Shown here piece after piece: positions 1 to 8,130 of a DNA stretch of 28,668 nt. The stretch comes from Ignavibacteriales bacterium (GTDB lineage Bacteria > Bacteroidota > Ignavibacteria > UBA10030 > UBA6906), in contig JBBIRR010000047.1 of NCBI GenBank assembly GCA_037441705.1, positions 1 through 28,668 on the forward strand, given 5' to 3'. The notes under the pieces are model-generated. The model was not told the DNA's origin, did not search any database, and saw only the letters and a program-made list of their open reading frames with translations. The position numbers and the translations under genes are program-made. How positions within the stretch are numbered: the stretch's first letter is position 1; every line of letters starts with the position of its first letter.

Positions 1-595
1 TCAAGAGTCTTGTGATGACTTCAAACGCTCGGTAATAGGTCCCAGTTTGCGTCGGTGTGTACGTGAAAGTGTAAGTGCGTGTGCTGTTACTTCCGATCGA
101 TAGCAGGCTTGAAGTCTGATCTGAATCATACGGAGGTGATTGGTTTCTATCGACGAGCAAACGCACTCGGGCATTCAGTGTCTGTGAGACTCTGTTTCTC
201 ACGACGATTTGAACTGTCACTTGCGTGCCCGGCTCAATTGTGCCGGAGGGGGAAATGTTGACACTCTCGACGTAAGGATAAATGCGGTTGATCTCGAGGT
301 TGGTGGTTTGCCCCGAATTGACATTTACAGGCCCGCCGTCTCCCCAATACTCTTCACCGAAAAATGTACCGGTGTAGTATGCTTCGCAAGTGTATGAGCC
401 AGTTGGGATATTGTTGAAGCAGTTCGGTGTGTATACAGACACGTTGCCAGGATAGCGAACCACACGTGCACCAGATATTGTTGAACCGCCAACATTGCGA
501 ACCGTAACACAGAGATTACCTGTTTGTCCTTCAGTTGGTGTCACCCCTGCCAAAGTTATGAATCCGAGCATTAAGAGGAGAAGCAATCTTGGCAT
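1..595 (-). CDS. Secreted beta-sandwich (Ig/CARDB-like) protein, 3'-truncated by window edge; gene of cassette 2
   Basis: Not in the ORF track; manual translation from ATG at 595 is open to the edge (198 codons): MPRLLLLLMLGFITLAGVTPTEG-QTGNLCVTVRNVGGSTISGARVV...SPSGTIEPGTQVTVQIVVRN...TRTYTFTYTPTQTGTY. Signal peptide, GAAAGGAG SD upstream, alternating beta-strand pattern. Confidence 0.85.
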   Translation of the reverse strand, partial: MPRLLLLLMLGFITLAGVTPTEGQTGNLCVTVRNVGGSTISGARVVRYPGNVSVYTPNCFNNIPTGSYTCEAYYTGTFFGEEYWGDGGPVNVNSGQTTNLEINRIYPYVESVNISPSGTIEPGTQVTVQIVVRNRVSQTLNARVRLLVDRNQSPPYDSDQTSSLLSIGSNSTRTYTFTYTPTQTGTYYRAFEVITRLL

Positions 596-650
596 ATCGG
601 CTCCTTTCTTTGTTGCAACGGCTCCCTTCAATCAGAGAGCGGGCAATTGC

Positions 651-798
651 ATATAACGTTTACCGTAGCAACGCAGCGCCGCACTCCACGCTTTTTATAA
701 TTGAGTGCGGCGTTGAGCGAGTTCTATATGTCGTGCTGCGCGTTGGCATGTGCGTTGACTTACCAAATGAACGAGCGTCGTTGCTACGGTTGTTGTGC
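651..798 (-). mobile_element. attC-like recombination site (non-canonical)
   Basis: On the minus strand GCACAAC-AACCG-TAGCAACG ... CGTTGCTA-CGGTAAAC-GTTATAT. AAC/GTT ends, perfect 12-bp stem (662-673 with 779-790), internal hairpin 677-686/703-712. Lies between two co-oriented ORFs next to an integrase. Confidence 0.8.
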
Positions 799-1421
799 GC
801 AGTGCGAGCACCGTTTCGTAGCTATTACTCATATCAGTTATTGCTGACTGTAAGGCTCGCAACCACATTGAGGGTTACCACCTTGGCAGAAGCATTTAGG
901 CTTTGTACCCGAAGGACAATTGATTGAACAGCTGCCAAACAGACAACTCACTTGACAGCTTCCACCGCCCGAACCACCACCTCCGATTGGAGCCGTTGGG
1001 CTTGAATCGAGAGATAGGGTTTGGAAGAACTGTTGCATATCCGTGGTCTCCTGTGCCCTTAATGCCGTGAGTGCGCTGTTCAGCCGATCGATTTCCTTCG
1101 TGTATGTAGGGTAATCGTTCTTCTTGAGCGCTGCGAATACAGCTTTGTAGGCACTCTGGAGATTGGTGTTTTGCTTTAGCGATGGATGTGCACTCAACCA
1201 TGCCATAAACGCATTGAAGTTTTGTTCCTGTTGAGCTGACACATTTAACGCCACTGCTACGGAGTCGGCACCCTTCGGGGGTGGTGGAGATGCATAAACC
1301 GAGATCTGGAACAAGACTGTAACCAGACCTAGGATCCACAAAACGAGGCGTGTCTTCATAAGTACCTCCTTCTGTATAATTGGTTGATGGTTTAGTTGAT
1401 TGGTGCGAGCATTGCGCACAA
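657..1421 (-). mobile_element. Complete gene cassette 1 (765 bp)
   Basis: Bounded by G^TT at 1422/1421 and 657/656. The start GTTGTGCGCAATGCTCGCACC (1422-1402) is an 18/21 inverted match to the R''-side sequence 792-812. Contains a single ORF. Confidence 0.75.
838..1359 (-). CDS. Secreted protein with helical domain, Gly/Ser linker and C-terminal 8-Cys domain (173 aa)
   Basis: Start moved from 1509 to ATG 1359: AGGAGGT SD directly upstream, signal peptide MKTRLVLWILGLVTVLFQISVYA. Ends GGGGSGGGS-CQVSCLFGSCSINCPSGTKPKCFCQGGNPQCGCEPYSQQ. Confidence 0.85.
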   Translation of the reverse strand: MKTRLVLWILGLVTVLFQISVYASPPPPKGADSVAVALNVSAQQEQNFNAFMAWLSAHPSLKQNTNLQSAYKAVFAALKKNDYPTYTKEIDRLNSALTALRAQETTDMQQFFQTLSLDSSPTAPIGGGGSGGGSCQVSCLFGSCSINCPSGTKPKCFCQGGNPQCGCEPYSQQ

Positions 1422-1483
1422 CATCTCTAACATCGTATTGCGTTTTTGTTTTGCTGTGTTCGTAGATCCGCATTTCGTTTTTG
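1416..1483 (-). mobile_element. attI-like site
   Basis: Core GTTGTGC (1422-1416) with no attC-type hairpin upstream, tandem GATGTT (GATGTTAGAGATGTTG), and 13/15 direct repeats at 1434-1448 and 1469-1483, all within 100 bp of the integrase stop. Confidence 0.6.
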
Positions 1484-1520
1484 CTCCGAGCTCTCGATAA
1501 TAGACGCATTAAGGGTGCGT

Positions 1521-2396
1521 CTATGACCCGTTTTTCTGAACGATTTGTTCAATCGGACTGCGGATGTTCGCCATAACACGCTTGCTCACGTGTGTATAGA
1601 CCTCGGTTGTCCGCAGACTGCTGTGCCCAAGCAGCTCCTGTATGTAACGAATATCGGTTCCCTGTTCGAGCAAGTGTGTTGCAAACGCATGACGCAAGGA
1701 ATGTATAGACACTTGTTTTGTGATTCCTGCTTTCACAACCGCCTGCTCAAACACCTTCTCTGCACTCCGCACAGAGTATGCCCTCCCTTCCTTCTGTCCC
1801 TCGAACAACCATTCCTTGGGTTTGTATGCTCTCCAATACTCCCTCAACATTTCAATGATTACGTCCGACAGCAACGTGTACCGATCCTTTTTCCCCTTGC
1901 CGGAGCGAATGTGTATCATTTTCCTCTGGCTATCAATATCTGCCAGTTTCAAATGCACAACCTCACCTACGCGTAACCCGGCGGAATAGACCAGCATCAG
2001 CATCGTCCTGTGTTTCAAGTTGCCCAAAGCATCAAACAACCTCTTGACTTCCTCCGAAGAGAGGATAACAGGTAGTGACTTTTCTTTCTTCGGCCGGGGA
2101 ATACTGCCGATGGCAAAGGGCAGCTTGTATAAGTCTACGTACAACAAACGCATCGCGTTGATCATCTGATTCACACTGGACGCCTTCCAATGTTCCTTCT
2201 CCAGAAGATGGAGAAGAAAGGAACGCAAGTCCTCACTCGACAATTCACGAGGATGTTTGGGCCAGTAGTGCCGGACCAATGTGCGAATGCAGCTTTGATA
2301 GGCCTTGACCGTCTTGTGTGAGTACCCCTTCAACCGCATTTCGCGGCGCAGGGTTTCGAAGAGTCCAGGCGTGGGCGGCTGGTGCGGGGTGTTCAT
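1521..2396 (-). CDS. Tyrosine recombinase, integron-integrase-like (N-terminal SAM-like domain), lacking the IntI-specific insertion
   Basis: Catalytic motifs GLRV, GKGKKDR, HSLRH, LLGH, TEVYTHV all intact. N-terminus 'MRLKGYSHKTVKAY' and 'RPKKEKSLPVILS' resemble IntI. 291 aa. Confidence 0.93.
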   Translation of the reverse strand: MNTPHQPPTPGLFETLRREMRLKGYSHKTVKAYQSCIRTLVRHYWPKHPRELSSEDLRSFLLHLLEKEHWKASSVNQMINAMRLLYVDLYKLPFAIGSIPRPKKEKSLPVILSSEEVKRLFDALGNLKHRTMLMLVYSAGLRVGEVVHLKLADIDSQRKMIHIRSGKGKKDRYTLLSDVIIEMLREYWRAYKPKEWLFEGQKEGRAYSVRSAEKVFEQAVVKAGITKQVSIHSLRHAFATHLLEQGTDIRYIQELLGHSSLRTTEVYTHVSKRVMANIRSPIEQIVQKNGS

Positions 2397-2614
2397 TGCG
2401 TTCTCCAGAGGAGTTCGAAAGAAATACCTCCCCCTACTTATATAAACTCAAACAGGTAACAGCTCCGGAGCGGGTGATGTGCACCAATCCGACGGCGTCG
2501 AGGAGGGGCGCGGGGATGGGGTGGGATACGCGCTCACGAACCACTCCTTACATTGGTGTGCGTTCGGATTCCCCGTTGAAGCTGAGGATGGCTTGAGGTG
2601 CAGCTGGTTGCACG

Positions 2615-2643
2615 AAGATAGCACAGGCATGAAAGAAAGTCAA
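2615..2643 (-). promoter_or_regulatory. Putative sigma70 promoter upstream of the integrase
   Basis: TTGACT-N17-TATCTT on the minus strand, about 220 bp upstream of the integrase ATG. Confidence 0.5.
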
Positions 2644-2781
2644 GACCTCCGCGCTTGCTGCTCAAGAAACTACCCGCAGGGAAGAGAAGTGGTGATGAGG
2701 TTTTCAACGGGGGGTGTCATCTTCACTCCCAACGTGCTTTGCCCGCCGGGAATGTAAACAACAAAGCAATCTGGCAGGCAG

Positions 2782-4020
2782 TCAGGGATTCCGGAATCCC
2801 CCCAACCGATGCTTCACATACGCAAACGCTCCGAAGGCTCGCACGGCTTCGGCCTGGGCATGCACGGTGCCGATATCGCCGACCTTGTAGCCATCCTCGC
2901 CGCCGTGCGGGTTCCAGCCGTTGCGGATACCGTGATCGCTTTCGCGATGCAGTGTCACCGTCGCTTTGCCGTGGGCGTTCGTCCAGACGTGGTCCAGCAT
3001 TCTCTCGATCTTCGCCGGCAAATCGGATAACTCGTCGGGGGCGATCAGGTAGGCATCGATCAGAAAATTGACGAACGCACCGTTGCCGTCCATGTGAATC
3101 TGATAGAAATCCACCGGATCCACCCATCCCGTTGCCGGATCCATAATCCGTCTCGCGGTTGCAACCACGATCTTTTTGTATTTCTCATCCTTCGTTACAT
3201 TATACAGCGCCGCGCCGATGGAACAATAGCCGGTCCCGTTCCAGGGCAGTTCTTTTCCGAAGGCCGCCCGCCCGTGGCGTCCCTCCCATCGTCCGTTGCC
3301 CTTGTACAGCGCCCGCTCCACGCCGGGAAACTGCGCGTCACCGTTCCAGACGAGCAAGGCGTCGTCGAGGTACTGCCGCTCGCCCGTGGCTTCGAACAGC
3401 ATGCATGCAACGGTGGCCATCTGGTTCATGTTCGTGTTGGTAAAGATGGGCTCGTTCACGCGCGCCTTCGGCGGCCAGTTGTACCACGTCCAGTACCCTT
3501 CGTGATTGGAGAGCCTGCCTTCGTTGCGCGCTTGCATGTAGCGACGGACAGCATCTTGCACGAGCGCGGTGTTCCAACGGCCGGAAACATCCCACCACTT
3601 CAATTCCGCAATGCACGCCCATGCGCGGTCATCAACCCAATAGCCGTTATCCAACCGCAGCAAACTCCGCTCGATGGTGTGGAAGCGCAGCAACATGGAA
3701 TCGTGCGTCACGGCAAACATGAACGCGTTGCCGATTGCCCCGTAGGCTCCTTCCCAGCCGGGAGTGTACACGCGCTGAAATTGCTGGTTGATGGCGTATG
3801 CACGCTGCATCCATAGTTCTTGCGGCCGGTAGGTCGGCGTCGTGGCGGGAGTTTCAGCCTCTGCCGTCTTGCGCTCACCCGCTGGGTTGCGCGTCAGCAG
3901 GAACACTGCTGCAGCGCTCGCCGCCACCAACAGAGCTGCGGCAAGGCGCCCGCGCGCCGATAGCGGTGTTCTGTGGCTTTCCGCCGAAGAGTGTTCCTTT
4001 TTTTTCTGGGACTTGCGCAT
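2782..4020 (-). CDS. Glycoside hydrolase family 76-like protein, membrane-anchored
   Basis: YWVDDRAW matches the GH76 adjacent-Asp catalytic motif; (alpha/alpha)6-type repeats; N-terminal basic stretch plus TM helix. Start taken at MRKSQ (4020) rather than 4104. Confidence 0.65.
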   Translation of the reverse strand: MRKSQKKKEHSSAESHRTPLSARGRLAAALLVAASAAAVFLLTRNPAGERKTAEAETPATTPTYRPQELWMQRAYAINQQFQRVYTPGWEGAYGAIGNAFMFAVTHDSMLLRFHTIERSLLRLDNGYWVDDRAWACIAELKWWDVSGRWNTALVQDAVRRYMQARNEGRLSNHEGYWTWYNWPPKARVNEPIFTNTNMNQMATVACMLFEATGERQYLDDALLVWNGDAQFPGVERALYKGNGRWEGRHGRAAFGKELPWNGTGYCSIGAALYNVTKDEKYKKIVVATARRIMDPATGWVDPVDFYQIHMDGNGAFVNFLIDAYLIAPDELSDLPAKIERMLDHVWTNAHGKATVTLHRESDHGIRNGWNPHGGEDGYKVGDIGTVHAQAEAVRAFGAFAYVKHRLGGFRNP

Positions 4021-4172
4021 CCTACACGTGAGGAAAGGGCAAATGAACAGCCGTAAGCTAAGAATGCATTCTCCGAAACACAAGTCAGATACCGCCACGC
4101 ACATTCACGGTCTGTACTTTTTCAGAGTTTTCTCGTATCATTCTCGGCAGCGTTCACAATAATGAGGTTTGA

Positions 4173-4985
4173 ATGCGTGCTCTCGTTCTCTGCATCCTCG
4201 TCATGCATGCTGCGTATGCCGAAGGACCCGCCCCTGCCGAGCAGCCCTCGCATGGCTCAAGTATCGAGCATGATCTTTCCTTATTCTTCCGACTCACCAG
4301 CCGCGGGCTTACGGCTCCGCTGCACTGGGAACAGGATGACTGGAGGAACGCCGCCGGAACAGTTTTCTTCACCGGCCTCTCCGGCTTGCTCGATGAAGAA
4401 GCCTACACAACCGCGCTGAGGAATCGCTCCGCCACTAACGACAAGCTCGAGCGTGTCTTTGAAGCATACAGCAACGGCCTCACGGGCATTATGTTTTCCG
4501 GCGTGTTCTACACCTCGGGACTCCTGTTCGACAGCGAGTGGCTCCGCGGAACAGGCCTGGTCATCGCAAGCGCACTCACCATCTCTGCCATTACCCAAAC
4601 GACGTTCAAGTACATTGCCGGGCGCGCGCGACCGTACACCGGATTTAGCAACTCTAAGTTCCGTCCGTTTTCGTTCAACTCCGATTTTGTCGCCTTCCCT
4701 TCCGGGCACACCATCGTTGCGTTCACCGTTTCCACCGTGCTGTCCAAACGGATCGACAACATCTACGCCTCCATTGCGCTGTACTCGGCCGCGGCGCTCG
4801 GAGGATTCTCGCGCATCTACTCGGGCAATCACTGGTTGTCGGATGTGGTGTTCGGAGGCGTGCTCGCGGTTTATGTTTCCTCATGGGCGGTGAGGCAGTA
4901 TGAAGGCGAACAGCACAGCGACGACAACTCCGGCCTGAAGATTTTCCCTCATGCCAATGGACTGCGGATAGTATGGAAGTTTTGA
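4173..4985 (+). CDS. PAP2 family phosphatase
   Basis: Motifs KYIAGRARP, FPSGH, SRIYSGNHWLSDV. Confidence 0.92.
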   Translation: MRALVLCILVMHAAYAEGPAPAEQPSHGSSIEHDLSLFFRLTSRGLTAPLHWEQDDWRNAAGTVFFTGLSGLLDEEAYTTALRNRSATNDKLERVFEAYSNGLTGIMFSGVFYTSGLLFDSEWLRGTGLVIASALTISAITQTTFKYIAGRARPYTGFSNSKFRPFSFNSDFVAFPSGHTIVAFTVSTVLSKRIDNIYASIALYSAAALGGFSRIYSGNHWLSDVVFGGVLAVYVSSWAVRQYEGEQHSDDNSGLKIFPHANGLRIVWKF

Positions 4986-5144: not shown

Positions 5145-6452
5145 ATGGCAAAAGCATCCGTTGCAGGATTGAGACAACGTTCGGCTGAACCGAACATCCG
5201 ACGCGCGTCGTCAATGGCAGACACGCTTATTGGTTCGGAGATTCTGAAGATTGCAACGGATATCCGCGCAATGATTGCCGACGGACGGACCATCTGCAAT
5301 CTTACCGTCGGCGATTTCAGTCCTGCCGAGTTTCGCATCCCGAGATTTCTGGAGGAGAATATCCTCGATGCACTGCAGCGCGGCGAAACCAACTACCCGC
5401 CCTCCGACGGCATGCTTGTGCTCAAGAAATCCATCCTCGCCTTCTACGAACGGTGGCTCGGTCTGCGCTATCCGCTCGAGTCGGTTCTTGTCACCGGCGG
5501 TTCCCGTCCGGGAATCTACGGCACCTATCGCACATTGGTTGATCCGGGCGACGTGGTGGTGTACCCCGTTCCGTCGTGGAACAACAACCACTACTGCCAT
5601 CAGGTGGGAGCCGAGGGTGTTGCCGTGCAGTGCAGCAGCGAAGAGGCGTTCCTTCCTACGCGCGCGCTGCTTGCGCGGGCGATCCGCGGCGCACGCCTTC
5701 TTGCCTTGAACTCGCCGCTGAACCCAACCGGCACGGCGTTCACACGCGACGCGCTGGAGGGCATATGCGATCTGGTGTTGGAAGAGAATGCGCGACGGGC
5801 GCGCAGCGAGCGCCCCCTGTATCTTCTCTACGATCAGGTGTACTGGATGCTGACCTTTGGCGCGACACGCCATTACACGCCTCTTGAGCTGCGCCCGGAA
5901 CTGGAGCCGTTTACGATTTTCATTGATGGCATCTCCAAGGCGTTTGCCGCAACCGGCGTGCGTGTGGGATGGGTACTCGGTCCGCCGGACATTGTGCAGA
6001 AGATGTCCAGCATCATAGGCCACGTCGGTGCGTGGGCGCCGCGCGCCGAACAGGTCGCCGTCGCCAAACTCCTGAGCGCCACCGATATCATCAAGGCGTA
6101 CCAGCGCGAGATGAAAACAAAGCTTCAAGCGCGCCTCGATGCCCTCTACAAAGGTCTCACCACATTGCGCAAAGAAGGCTTGCCCGTTGATGTCATTCCG
6201 CCGATGGGCGCCATATATCTTGCCGCACGCTTTGCACTGAACGGGAGACGAACTTCTGCAGGAACACTGCTCACAACAAATGAGGACATCCGCACCTTTC
6301 TTCTGCACGAGGCCGGACTTGCCATCGTTCCCTTTCAAGCTTTCGGCATGAAGGAAGACACCGGATGGTTCAGGCTTTCGGTCGGTGCTGTGTCACTCCG
6401 GGAACTTGAGGAGGTGATGCCGAGACTGAGGAAGGCTCTCGCATCGGTATAG
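5145..6452 (+). CDS. PLP-dependent class I/II aminotransferase (aspartate aminotransferase-like)
   Basis: NSPLNPTG, YDQVY, SKAFAATGVRVGW (PLP lysine), FRLS. Start uncertain (5091 or 5145). Confidence 0.92.
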   Translation: MAKASVAGLRQRSAEPNIRRASSMADTLIGSEILKIATDIRAMIADGRTICNLTVGDFSPAEFRIPRFLEENILDALQRGETNYPPSDGMLVLKKSILAFYERWLGLRYPLESVLVTGGSRPGIYGTYRTLVDPGDVVVYPVPSWNNNHYCHQVGAEGVAVQCSSEEAFLPTRALLARAIRGARLLALNSPLNPTGTAFTRDALEGICDLVLEENARRARSERPLYLLYDQVYWMLTFGATRHYTPLELRPELEPFTIFIDGISKAFAATGVRVGWVLGPPDIVQKMSSIIGHVGAWAPRAEQVAVAKLLSATDIIKAYQREMKTKLQARLDALYKGLTTLRKEGLPVDVIPPMGAIYLAARFALNGRRTSAGTLLTTNEDIRTFLLHEAGLAIVPFQAFGMKEDTGWFRLSVGAVSLRELEEVMPRLRKALASV

Positions 6453-6455
6453 TAG

Positions 6456-6760
6456 AGGCAGGATGCGGTTTGGGGTTCGACGATCGGATGCAGGATGTGG
6501 GTTCAGGATGCACGATGAGAATCCGTCATGCTGAGCGCTGCTTTCCAAGCGCGAAGCATCCAGAACCGAGGCGCGGGTTTTATGTTCAATCCCGGACGGG
6601 GTTCGAGGTTTGGGGTTTGAGGTTTGGGGTTCGATGCGGGAGGGATGCAGAGGATGCAAGATTCAGGATGATTCTCGTTCTGGATTCTTCGCCCGGTTGC
6701 GCCGAGCACCCTTCGACTCCGTCCCGCTGAAAGGCGGCGGGACTGCGCTCAGGGTGATAC
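6456..6760. repeat. Intergenic composite repeat: heptamer runs plus REP-like inverted repeats
   Basis: GRGGTTY x5 at 6598-6632; several (CA)GGATGC units; inverted pair GTCATGCTGAGCGC (6525-6538) / GCGCTCAGGGTGAT (6745-6758); inner hairpin GTCCCGC/GCGGGAC (6721-6743). Confidence 0.7.
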
Positions 6761-6885
6761 CGGCGTTCGGACGTCACGGCTTACGCGCCCCACACGCGCG
6801 CCGTAATGGAAAGGCAGGCGATGTGAGCCTGCCGCGGCGCGGGCAGATCAACATGTGATACCACCGAAGTTTCGCCTCAACCGGC

Positions 6886-8130
6886 TTGCCGACTTTCAAA
6901 CGCATACTTGCAGAGGTCATTCGCTCACGCGCAATTCCGCCACGACAACTTCAGCCGGGCGAATGCCAATCACCGACCGGCCAACGCTGCGGGCTGTGTT
7001 ACGCCGTCGCGCTCGACTACGAATCGGAAATCGCAGCAAAACAGCAGGCGCTGCAGCAGTTCTGGCACTCGCTCAGAATCCCTTCCACACTCAAGCCGCT
7101 GATCGCGTCTCCGCTCGGCAGGAACTATCGCACGACGACCAAACGTCGCGCGTTCTTCTCTCGTGACTCCGTCCGGCTCGGCCTCATCAATCCCGATGAA
7201 GAAGGCAGGCTGCACCCCCTTCCCGTCGAGCAATGCGCTATCGAGCCTGTGCGGCATTGCGCAATCTACAACCGCATTCAGGAAACCATCGCAAAACCCT
7301 ATGCGAGAAAGCTCGCGCAGCACTTGAACTACGTCGTCATCAAAGGAAACTATCACGAAGAGACGATCATCTTGAACATCAACGATCTCTCTCCGGAGGT
7401 GGTGCGCGCAGCAAACACGCTCTCGAAATCGCTCACACGCTCGTTCAGCACGATTATCGGCATGTTCCTGTACGAAGATGTTTCTCGTCCACAGTATTAT
7501 TTAGGTTCGCAATCGAGAGCGGGAAGGCTGCCGTTCAGAAAGCTGTTCGGCAAAGCGACGGTGTTTCATCGGGTGGCGGGACGAAGCTTCCTCTTCTCGC
7601 CTCTCTCGTTCTCGCAGGTCAATCAGTCTATTCTCGATCAGACGATTGATACCGCGCGAACACTCCTGAAGCCGTCGAAGGAGCAAAGGCTGTTCGATCT
7701 GTACTGCGGATACGGATTGTTCGCTTTGTGTCTTGCAGGCGAATGCAAAGCGGTTGTCGGTGCCGAGGTTTCAGCCGCTTCGGTTGCTTCCGCTGTGGCC
7801 AATGCACGCCGGCAGAACGTGGCCAACGCGCGCTTCATGCTCACCGACATCAACGAGCAAACCATCGAGCGAATCATGCACACGACTCGGCCCGACGATC
7901 TCGTTCTTCTTGATCCGCCACGCAACGGAACCGCCGACGGCGTCATTGAGCACATTGCCGCACGACGTCCGGCGCGGGTCGTTCACATCTTTTGTGAAAT
8001 CGATCTCCTGCCCAAGGAGCTGAAGCGCTGGAAAGAATCGGGGTACCGACCAACACGTGCCGTTCCGTTGGACATGTTTCCCGGGACTGCAGGCGTGGAA
8101 ACGATGGTGGCACTGGAGCCGATGGCGTAA
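6886..8130 (+). CDS. RNA (uracil-C5)-methyltransferase, RlmD/TrmA family
   Basis: FSQVN, DLYCGYG, LDPPR, catalytic Cys in HIFC, DMFPGT..VE; Cys cluster CQSPTGQRCGLC. TTG start. Confidence 0.88.
   Translation: MPTFKRILAEVIRSRAIPPRQLQPGECQSPTGQRCGLCYAVALDYESEIAAKQQALQQFWHSLRIPSTLKPLIASPLGRNYRTTTKRRAFFSRDSVRLGLINPDEEGRLHPLPVEQCAIEPVRHCAIYNRIQETIAKPYARKLAQHLNYVVIKGNYHEETIILNINDLSPEVVRAANTLSKSLTRSFSTIIGMFLYEDVSRPQYYLGSQSRAGRLPFRKLFGKATVFHRVAGRSFLFSPLSFSQVNQSILDQTIDTARTLLKPSKEQRLFDLYCGYGLFALCLAGECKAVVGAEVSAASVASAVANARRQNVANARFMLTDINEQTIERIMHTTRPDDLVLLDPPRNGTADGVIEHIAARRPARVVHIFCEIDLLPKELKRWKESGYRPTRAVPLDMFPGTAGVETMVALEPMA

Follow-up and report, generated by a model that had tools for sequence, protein, structure and literature searches.

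An insertion-less tyrosine recombinase at the head of a probable integron-like cassette platform in an Ignavibacteriales genome

Can a tyrosine recombinase that lacks the additional domain of the integron integrase IntI stand at the head of an array of mobile gene cassettes? The question is raised by the first 2,396 nucleotides (nt) of a 28,668-nt stretch of DNA from an Ignavibacteriales bacterium (contig JBBIRR010000047.1), here called the window, which is an entire contig (C47) of its source genome (G000; 3.83 Mb in 92 contigs), base 1 being a contig end. Read along the minus strand, this segment holds in order an integrase gene, an attI-like site, a first cassette, an attC-like site and the start of a second cassette. 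For the window's recombinase we coined the name IntX, which serves as a label only. We read positions 1 to 2396, with a probability of about 0.7, as the head of an integron-like cassette platform comprising an insertion-less integrase, its adjoining attI-like site and cassettes moved by recombination between the G and the TT of a conserved core (G^TT). Our results document the anatomy of this platform, a covarying family of sites, a signature at the cassette junctions and variation of the cassettes behind a conserved integrase and attI region; adjacency and co-occurrence make IntX the probable recombinase of the array. The elements of the platform are the following.

1521-2396, minus strand: tyrosine recombinase IntX, 291 aa
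1500-1524: ATAGACGCA-N7-TGCGTCTAT, a 9-7-9 inverted repeat without mismatches that extends over the stop codon of the integrase gene and forms the first of the attI-like palindromes
1360-1520, minus strand: intergenic region with the attI-like site inside
1409-1422, minus strand: attI-like core GTTGTGCGCAATGC, with a putative crossover between G1422 and T1421
657-1421, minus strand: cassette 1, 765 nt, which begins with TTGTGC..., includes its own attC-like site and ends with the G of the following core
838-1359, minus strand: open reading frame (ORF) of cassette 1, 173 aa
596-837, minus strand: intergenic region with an AAC...GTT hairpin inside
1-656, minus strand: cassette 2, partial, running off the contig end
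2-595, minus strand: ORF of cassette 2, at least 198 aa, open at the contig end

This ORF layout agrees with the gene order and orientation given in an earlier sequence-only reading of the same DNA, as does base composition with the AT-richer character that it had assigned to the segment: G+C content is 49.4% in 1-2396 as against 57.2% in the remaining window, and 49.7% in cassette 1. In an attempt to extend the array leftwards, the left 300 nt of the window were found to overlap no other contig of the genome.

The strongest evidence for what looks like integron-type insertion lies at the cassette junctions. Recombination at G^TT would leave the six bases after the G with the cassette, and these should therefore pair with the R'' box of the cassette's own attC-like site. 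Among 35 cassettes from seven arrays, R'' is in reverse complement identical to the 7-mer at the upstream (5') junction of its cassette in 25, and to the cassette's own downstream core in 5. Thirty cassettes are informative, having differing cores; 27 of them favour the upstream core, two their own downstream core, and one is tied. None of 10,000 permutations reached the observed value. First cassettes match the adjoining attI-like core perfectly in six cases out of six, the window's included, five of these cores adjoining an integrase and the sixth (locus L003) lying on a contig without one. In the window, the R'' of cassette 1 is the exact complement of the attI-like core (GCACAAC versus GTTGTGC), and the bounds of cassette 1 are therefore placed at 657-1421. 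These findings point to recombination at G^TT, the position that the sequence-only reading had named, the support being a sequence signature that is perfect in 25 of the 35 cassettes. As to orientation, 39 of 43 model hits lie on the strand of the integrase, or on that of the array genes on two integrase-less contigs, and the remaining four are weak echoes over strong hits. Since all 39 strong hits follow the integrase or array strand, an inversion system is excluded.

The inter-cassette elements are 140-190 nt long and share a common layout. Their 5' half consists of R'' (nnnnAAC), 1 nt, L'' (9 nt), a conserved ACGACGCTC-like stretch and the central stem; the 3' half continues with CTGCGT, L' (the complement of L''), 4-5 nt (ACAC-like) and R' (GTTnnnn). 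The R' core is then followed by a further conserved 7 nt (GCGCCAT-like). The site of cassette 1 has these parts.

651-798, minus strand: attC-like site, 148 nt, 131.9 bits with model R1
792-798, minus strand: R'', GCACAAC
782-790, minus strand: L'', ACCGTAGCA
674-686 and 703-715, minus strand: the two sides of the central stem
662-670, minus strand: L', TGCTACGGT
658-661, minus strand: 4-nt spacer, AAAC
651-657, minus strand: R', GTTATAT

The folding energies of the window hairpins are not significant on their own (z -0.89, -1.65 and -1.77; for the first two, 36 and 11 of 200 shuffles fold as well), and comparative evidence was used instead for this reason. In an alignment of 18 sites from five genomes, RNAalifold proposes 27 pairs with compensatory changes in each, and 27 of the 31 pairs of a structure that we supplied change on both sides. 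That structure leaves 89.8% of the cells paired, compared with 62.8% in shuffles (0 of 500 reach the observed value) and 31-46% with slid partners. In addition, covariance model R2, trained on 14 sites of other genomes only and on none from the source genome, recovers the window site at 643-801 on the minus strand (90.8 bits, E 4.9e-21), together with five further sites in the genome; the 28.7-kb window gave no second match. Covariation of the stems speaks for selection on the folded form of the site. An Rfam scan of positions 1-3000 at E <= 10 returned only two chance-level matches, MIR399 and ssnA.

Further attC-like sites had been predicted from the window alone, and model R1 finds seven in the source genome; across the order, 34 of 41 genomes have them. 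In a Pseudomonadales contig (L080), R1 also matches two sites (E 1e-7 and 8e-7) placed upstream of a canonical IntI and oriented divergently from it, and the architecture is therefore close to that of classical attC; the same model found nothing in Bacteroidales and Flavobacteriia loci. As a separate observation, two metagenome contigs (L108, 3202-5667; L109, 1800-2698) carry R1-like sites upstream of an integrase that is encoded on the other strand and shows no insertion in the alignment, which would combine the classical divergent layout with an insertion-less integrase.

On the integrase side, the 9-7-9 palindrome that overlaps the stop codon is a putative binding site. Comparable palindromes of the ACGCA...TGCGT type, one or two in number, lie directly 3' of the stop codons of IntX homologues, and a core with the consensus ...agta GTTAnnnGCCATTG follows 26-127 nt past the stop codon, the lower rows of this core listing being false positives inside IS91 transposase genes. 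This arrangement of integrase, palindromes and core is kept down to ~44% protein identity. The 13-mer GATAATAGACGCA occurs in exact form at only four places in the genome, two of them at contig ends beside defence genes. The palindrome, and the 13-mer that recurs on contigs C45, C49 and C59, were first read as att sites of an island or as dif-like sites, an idea that was rejected because relatives show the same layout as a post-integrase attI-like region. A 104-nt attI-like stretch with two palindromes and a core is common to C45:28725-28828 and C49:26664-26767 (loci L002 and L003; 99% identity); the two copies diverge right after GTTA, and no integrase gene lies upstream on C45. This stretch looks like a case of alternative first cassettes, or like a second platform without an integrase in cis.

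In public assemblies, different sequences follow a conserved integrase and attI region, and the breakpoints fall at the cores. Window positions 1-4200 were compared with Logan contigs from four public runs; X1 is the likely source sample, X2 a second sample of the same study and X3 a sample of another study, the tables of X3 and X4 being identical and counted as one data set. Parts uncovered in X2-X4 were not taken as evidence. Positions 637 and 1420-1422 are contig breakpoints in X1, where loose ends occur at 637, 1409 and 1427; one 786-nt contig spans exactly 637-1422, and others match the window on either the attI and integrase side or the cassette side before turning unlike it at 1409, 1427 and 637. 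Contig 9 of X2 matches 1420-2308 apart from 13 differences, and its 95 letters to the left of 1409 are unlike the window. In contig 18 of X3, 1415-1525 is matched with a single difference and is flanked on the left by 255 or more unlike letters, and another X3 contig contains a copy of the attC-like site (701-799) and is unlike the window beyond 799 and before 643-653. A joint in X2 leading from 1147 to 3322 was disregarded, as one of its sides is only 22 letters long. Behind IntX homologues in other genomes (two loci in G040, and G033, G025 and G027), the genes downstream of the integrase form co-oriented runs and are diverse and mostly small. Both lines of observation, from homologues and from public contigs with the same integrase and attI region and different sequence past the core, fit the variable, co-oriented downstream genes that had been expected.

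The protein itself has the Pfam domains Phage_int_SAM_4 and Phage_integrase. Against TIGR02249 (integron integrase) it scores 223 bits, below the cut-off of 265 and in two stretches that skip the insertion. The source genome also encodes a canonical IntI (C73:50-1132), with which IntX shares 35% identity; the alignment has 43 gap positions opposite IntI residues ~223-277, around LREYWRAYKPKEWLFEGQ, and this gapped region (ALERKYPNA...WQWVFP) we take to be the IntI additional domain. The lack of the insertion, first noticed from the window's letters, is thus upheld by the genome's own IntI and by the split, sub-threshold TIGR02249 match. NCBIfam NF040815 ('site-specific tyrosine recombinase/integron integrase') is passed with 225.7 bits at a cut-off of 220; two further Xer-like genes of the genome pass it too, so this family is not specific. 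Among sequences of known structure, XerA (5hxy) matches with 138.5 bits, IntI4 (VchIntIA, 2a3v) with 136.8 in two stretches and XerD (1a0p) with 110. As judged by these scores, IntX is equidistant from archaeal XerA and VchIntIA, and further from XerD.

The family to which IntX belongs is very large, 7953 of 8000 scored candidates matching at E <= 0.001. The best non-self matches are 60-72% identical, many of them lie on 1-3-kb contigs, and those that are named are labelled Bacteroidota; scans of genome and metagenome contigs gave nearest homologues of 55% and 58% identity among the matches listed. A homologue at E <= 1e-40 occurs in 18 of the 41 genomes of the order, with only ~60% identity even within the genus, and in most of the best matches from these genomes the contig ends 60-1100 nt past the stop codon. 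Homologues also occur in Bacteroidales at 50% (L007), 45% (L017), 44% (L014) and 43% (L031) identity. A protein search seeded with L007 yielded no protein labelled Bacteroides fragilis among its best 120 matches.

A phylogeny was obtained from 106 rows by a quick IQ-TREE search, with support from the Shimodaira-Hasegawa-like approximate likelihood ratio test (SH-aLRT) only, and was rooted on the genome's two Xer-like genes; the rows include 14 of 56 IS91-associated recombinases, 34 of 65 other insertion-less sequences and three insertion-less archaeal ones. The IntI clade comprises 30 of the 31 insertion-bearing rows (SH-aLRT 99), the outlier being one long branch, and it excludes IntX. The IntX proteins of the order form an 18-row clade (SH-aLRT 98) within a 67-row insertion-less clade (SH-aLRT 91) that also holds Flavobacteriia, Bacteroidales, Cytophagia-type and Spirochaetota rows, with the IS91-associated recombinases nested inside, and a branch with SH-aLRT 98 sets IntX apart from the two Xer-like genes of the genome. 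As it falls outside the IntI clade, IntX is not a recent IntI that lost its insertion, and a sister relationship of its clade to IntI is possible. The assignment to a different clade, proposed in the sequence-only reading, is confirmed to this extent.

These elements can be joined in a model. A tyrosine recombinase of the IntI/XerA neighbourhood, without the IntI insertion, would be followed on the same strand by its own attI-like site, made of palindromes and the conserved GTTGTGCGCAATGC core. Downstream would come promoter-less-looking single-gene cassettes, each ending in an attC-like element of ~150 nt with the layout R''(nnnnAAC)-L''...L'-4 nt-R'(GTTnnnn) and covarying stems. Cassettes would be gained and lost as circles through site-specific recombination, the exchange taking place between the G and the TT of the core, and the six bases after the G would travel with the cassette, staying complementary to its own R''. 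The attC-like site may act as a folded single strand, as in integrons. In this regard, neighbouring cores differ in the bases after GTT, which argues against a classical double-strand exchange across a shared overlap; covarying stems and differing cores would both favour an integron-like single-strand exchange. In its strongest form the model states that a natural tyrosine recombinase without the I2 insertion recombines folded attC hairpins, by a single-strand exchange at G^TT resolved by replication. If so, there would be a second Bacteroidota-wide integron lineage, sister to IntI and not derived from it, with rAID-1 (recombinase-associated acquired interbacterial defence) of the gut as one branch; in this order, the lineage would have its cassette pool and core in common with IntI integrons of the same genomes. 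We hold this strong form tentatively, at somewhat short of an even chance.

Which integrase works the array is best approached through the distribution of both enzymes. IntX or IntI is present in 20 of the 41 genomes, all of which hold sites, and the seven genomes without sites are also without both integrases. Six genomes have IntX and no IntI at E <= 1e-40. The IntX genomes G033, G003, G010, G028 and G035, 94-100% complete, contain 15, 6, 18, 4 and 4 sites, and a TIGR02249 search of the five gave no match over the cut-off, the best matches being the IntX genes, split in two. In G033 the ten sites listed all lie on contig C6, just downstream of IntX, with 14 integrase-strand hits in locus L189. 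The sequence-only reading had described a cassette-capture platform run by a clade other than IntI; the platform and the clade are well supported by our results, and the role of IntX as its driver is what we infer.

Several observations weigh against the platform reading or against IntX as its engine. The window itself holds one complete cassette only. The sites of the first alignment were picked by L''/L' complementarity, which makes the support for that helix circular in part; site choice took no account of the other two variable helices. The variation seen in public data was read from assembled contigs instead of raw reads, and other strains or organisms may contribute to it. The quick tree, with SH-aLRT support only, leaves the branching order of IntI, the insertion-less clade and the archaeal XerA-like rows unresolved, and IntX stands as a putative catalyst. 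The genome also has the canonical IntI of C73, followed by a simple site and a contig end, and in G040 the IntI gene is followed by ...agtaGTTAGG at a contig end. Genomes that have IntI and no IntX also hold R1 sites (nine in G006, two in G011), and IntI could therefore service the same sites in trans. Finally, of 21 genomes that lack both integrases at E <= 1e-40, 14 nevertheless have sites; among them G032, 99% complete, has 26 R1 sites, either as orphan arrays or through a more distant recombinase.

The most serious competitor to IntX-driven capture is the view that these arrays are ordinary integrons driven by a canonical IntI such as that of C73, IntX merely standing at the array head, for instance moving the platform or resolving dimers. 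Canonical IntI is encoded in the source genome and in 14 of 41 relatives, its closest relatives run through ...cagta|GTTAGG, the same core type as behind IntX, into a contig end, G006 and G011 have their sites without IntX, and R1 recognises attC sites beside canonical IntI as well. Moreover, the I2 helix is held (Escudero 2016 and 2020; PMC4792948, PMC7790495) to be the innovation that turned a double-strand recombinase into one that recombines single-stranded attC. The structure of VchIntIA with attC points the same way. Against this view stand the five 94-100% complete genomes with IntX and arrays and with no TIGR02249 match over the cut-off, the first cassettes of the IntX-proximal arrays, whose R'' matches the core directly behind IntX in five of five, and the conservation of the integrase-palindromes-core arrangement to ~44% protein identity. 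attI sites are normally specific to the neighbouring integrase. We consider IntI-driven arrays unlikely, clearly less probable than a platform with IntX as its integrase. Both enzymes may also work on one pool of sites.

IntX could instead be the integrase of an integrative island or of an IS91-type element, or a Xer paralogue, with the repeats being att sites, repetitive extragenic palindromic (REP) elements or terminators. It passes NF040815 (XerA), but so do two other Xer-like genes of the genome; an IS91-family transposase gene lies within 600 nt downstream in 56 of 174 homologous loci, but none follows the window integrase; and the 13-mer is found at only four genomic places, two at contig ends by defence genes. 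No tRNA is nearby, a scan of five loci having found none, on which ground a tRNA-linked island was rejected. The IntX gene is patchy (18 of 41 genomes, ~60% identity within the genus). The sites run in direct orientation, accompany the genes one to one and combine covarying stems with the junction signature, a pattern that att, REP or terminator readings do not predict. This account is largely refuted and we give it very little weight. Still less credible, to the point of being negligible, is a chance hairpin between two unrelated small genes beside a Xer-like gene: folding energies are unremarkable and Rfam gave no match, but the independent R2 match, the covariation controls, the junction permutations and the contig breakpoints at the cores all speak against it.

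What the cassettes encode varies within the genome. The ORF of cassette 1, preceded by a GAAGGAGG ribosome-binding site, has by eye a hydrophobic, signal-like N-terminal segment and a Cys/Gly-rich C-terminus, and its product matches no Pfam or NCBIfam family at E <= 0.01 (best E 0.026-0.07, far under the cut-offs). The product of cassette 2 has a signal-like N-terminus and a CARDB/Ig-like domain (Pfam CARDB, 24.5 bits at a cut-off of 22.7; Ig_CFAP65_4th, 28.1 bits at a cut-off of 27). No immunity family of Pfam or NCBIfam is matched by the window cassettes. Elsewhere in the genome, the array at C49:21808-26672 has cassettes of one gene each, which encode a SEFIR/TIR protein, a methyltransferase and a DUF3800 protein, and at C59:19832-20411 genes for a GmrSD_N protein and a DNA methylase lie beside sites. 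In G040 (L186 and L187), arrays of at least 30 kb carry repeated three-gene modules of a ~440-aa transglutaminase-like protein, a ~240-aa Rhs-core protein and a small ORF; the ~240-aa proteins exceed the NCBIfam cut-off for Rhs_assc_core in three of three tested, with no Pfam family found for them. These modules look like stockpiles of orphan toxins and immunity genes. In L186 (G040:C2), an IS91-family element is inserted at 6104-8125 between the IntX gene and its cassette array, with a truncated-looking tyrosine recombinase of its own (264 aa) and a Y2_Tnp/Zn_Tnp_IS91 transposase.

Some further observations concern the surroundings. The C73 locus (50-1141, minus strand; L005) has a canonical IntI with the additional domain, 46 nt from the contig end, followed by the simple site GTTAGAT-ggaaacc-ATATAAC; in its closest relatives (G040, G006) the simple site is followed by a contig end near a ...cagta|GTTAGG core ~160 nt downstream. 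C73-type IntI genes seem also to have co-oriented downstream arrays. In the window, positions 6697-6818 are a copy of a dispersed repeat of ~50-130 nt with 86-98% identity to many contig ends (C7, C9, C79, C87 and others), a family that appears to break the assembly at many places. At 2381-2660, upstream of the integrase, X1 has 2-3 times the summed contig word depth of the flanks, with loose ends at 2335 and 2655; this stretch is single-copy in the assembled genome and common to other community members.

These findings matter because the integron field and its detection tools depend on the additional domain of IntI. Arrays such as these would be filed as orphan attC clusters beside a 'Xer-like' gene, hiding much of the cassette flow in Bacteroidota. 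An I2-less integrase beside canonical-looking attC sites, in genomes that also have a canonical IntI, makes the contribution of the insertion directly testable, and with it the way in which single-strand attC recombination evolved. If an I2-less enzyme does recombine folded attC sites, the insertion would not be required for cassette capture, and the system would provide a living model for the origin of integrons. Defence-type cargo (SEFIR/TIR, GmrSD_N, DUF3800) is among the cassettes of this genome. For rAID elements, whose biogenesis is called an open question in a 2025 paper (PMC12247911), the match between R'' and the upstream core suggests a concrete mechanism by which arrays may arise.

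When compared with known systems, IntX shares its fold family with the XerA, XerC and XerD resolvases, as well as the passing of the NF040815 cut-off, and differs from these housekeeping genes in being patchy (18 of 41), mobile-looking and tied to a cassette array rather than to a dif site. The IS91-associated recombinases are nested in the same insertion-less clade and have the same two domains; in them a Y2_Tnp/Zn_Tnp_IS91 transposase gene lies directly downstream, whereas the window gave no IS91 tblastn hit within 600 nt downstream of IntX and no IS91 ends.

With classical integrons the window has in common attC ends of the AAC/GTT type, covarying inner boxes and asymmetric spacers (1 nt versus 4 nt) in a conserved R''-L''...L'-R' structure, one gene per cassette, the G^TT junction signature and a first cassette at the integrase-proximal site, with a perfect sequence match in six of six cases; toxin-antitoxin and defence genes are found among cassettes in both. 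It differs in that IntX is without the defining additional domain and outside the IntI clade, and in that the array lies downstream of, and co-oriented with, the integrase, where the classical layout has it upstream of and divergent from intI and expressed from Pc. Spirochaete-type integrons have an intI that is co-oriented with the array. The sites, of 140-190 nt and with an extra branch, are at or above the usual range of attC, and they have the further conserved 7 nt (GCGCCAT-like) after R'. Complete integrons are reported in Chlorobi, Ignavibacteriae and one Bacteroidetes genome by IntegronFinder 2 (PMC9024848).

The closest described relative is rAID-1, found in 226 of 423 Bacteroidales genomes (Ross et al. 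2019, bioRxiv 10.1101/471110). As that preprint defines it, rAID-1 has at its 5' end a XerD-like recombinase with over 44% identity (E about 1e-100) to BF9343_RS08045, at least two co-directional downstream genes whose G+C content is at most 41%, and conserved motifs 3' of the recombinase stop and between ORFs; its cargo is orphan immunity genes against interbacterial toxins. On that description, rAID-1 resembles the window in the XerD-family tyrosine recombinase at the 5' end, the co-oriented short genes downstream, the skew to low G+C and the frequent breaking of contigs in the arrays. Both window ORFs (838-1359 and 2-595) are on the minus strand, as is IntX. Their G+C content is above the 41% limit, which was set for Bacteroidales, at 49.7% in cassette 1 and 49.4% in the segment, ~8 points below the rest of the window. 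Motifs lie past the stop codon and between ORFs here, and may correspond to those of rAID-1 (Fig. S4 of Ross et al. 2019). The Bacteroidales homologues fall in the same insertion-less clade as IntX; in L017, one of these, the core type is shared and the low-G+C array opens with a Phd/YoeB pair. In Flavobacteriaceae (L019, 8250-11754; L009, 7780-11823), co-oriented low-G+C cassettes lie behind a 375-aa homologue, and by eye their R'' boxes (TGCCAAC and ATACAAC) match the upstream core (GTTGGCA and GTTGTAT), a GTTG core.

The clade and the architecture are thus already described in outline as rAID-1 in gut Bacteroidales, and the system is less new than the sequence-only reading had assumed. Our search of open papers, whose figures and supplements lay outside its reach and may hold such motifs, found no insertion-less recombinase with attC-type arrays beyond the rAID work. 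Within the Bacteroidota-wide family that includes this element, rAID-1 is the name given to the branch of gut Bacteroidales. In contrast to that branch, the window's host is a 57% G+C member of another order from subsurface and bioreactor metagenomes, and the cargo consists of putatively secreted proteins in the window and of SEFIR/TIR, DUF3800, GmrSD_N and methyltransferase proteins elsewhere in the genome. Relative to rAID-1 as described, the window thus has a new host lineage and new cargo, with canonical-looking attC sites and a coexisting canonical IntI.

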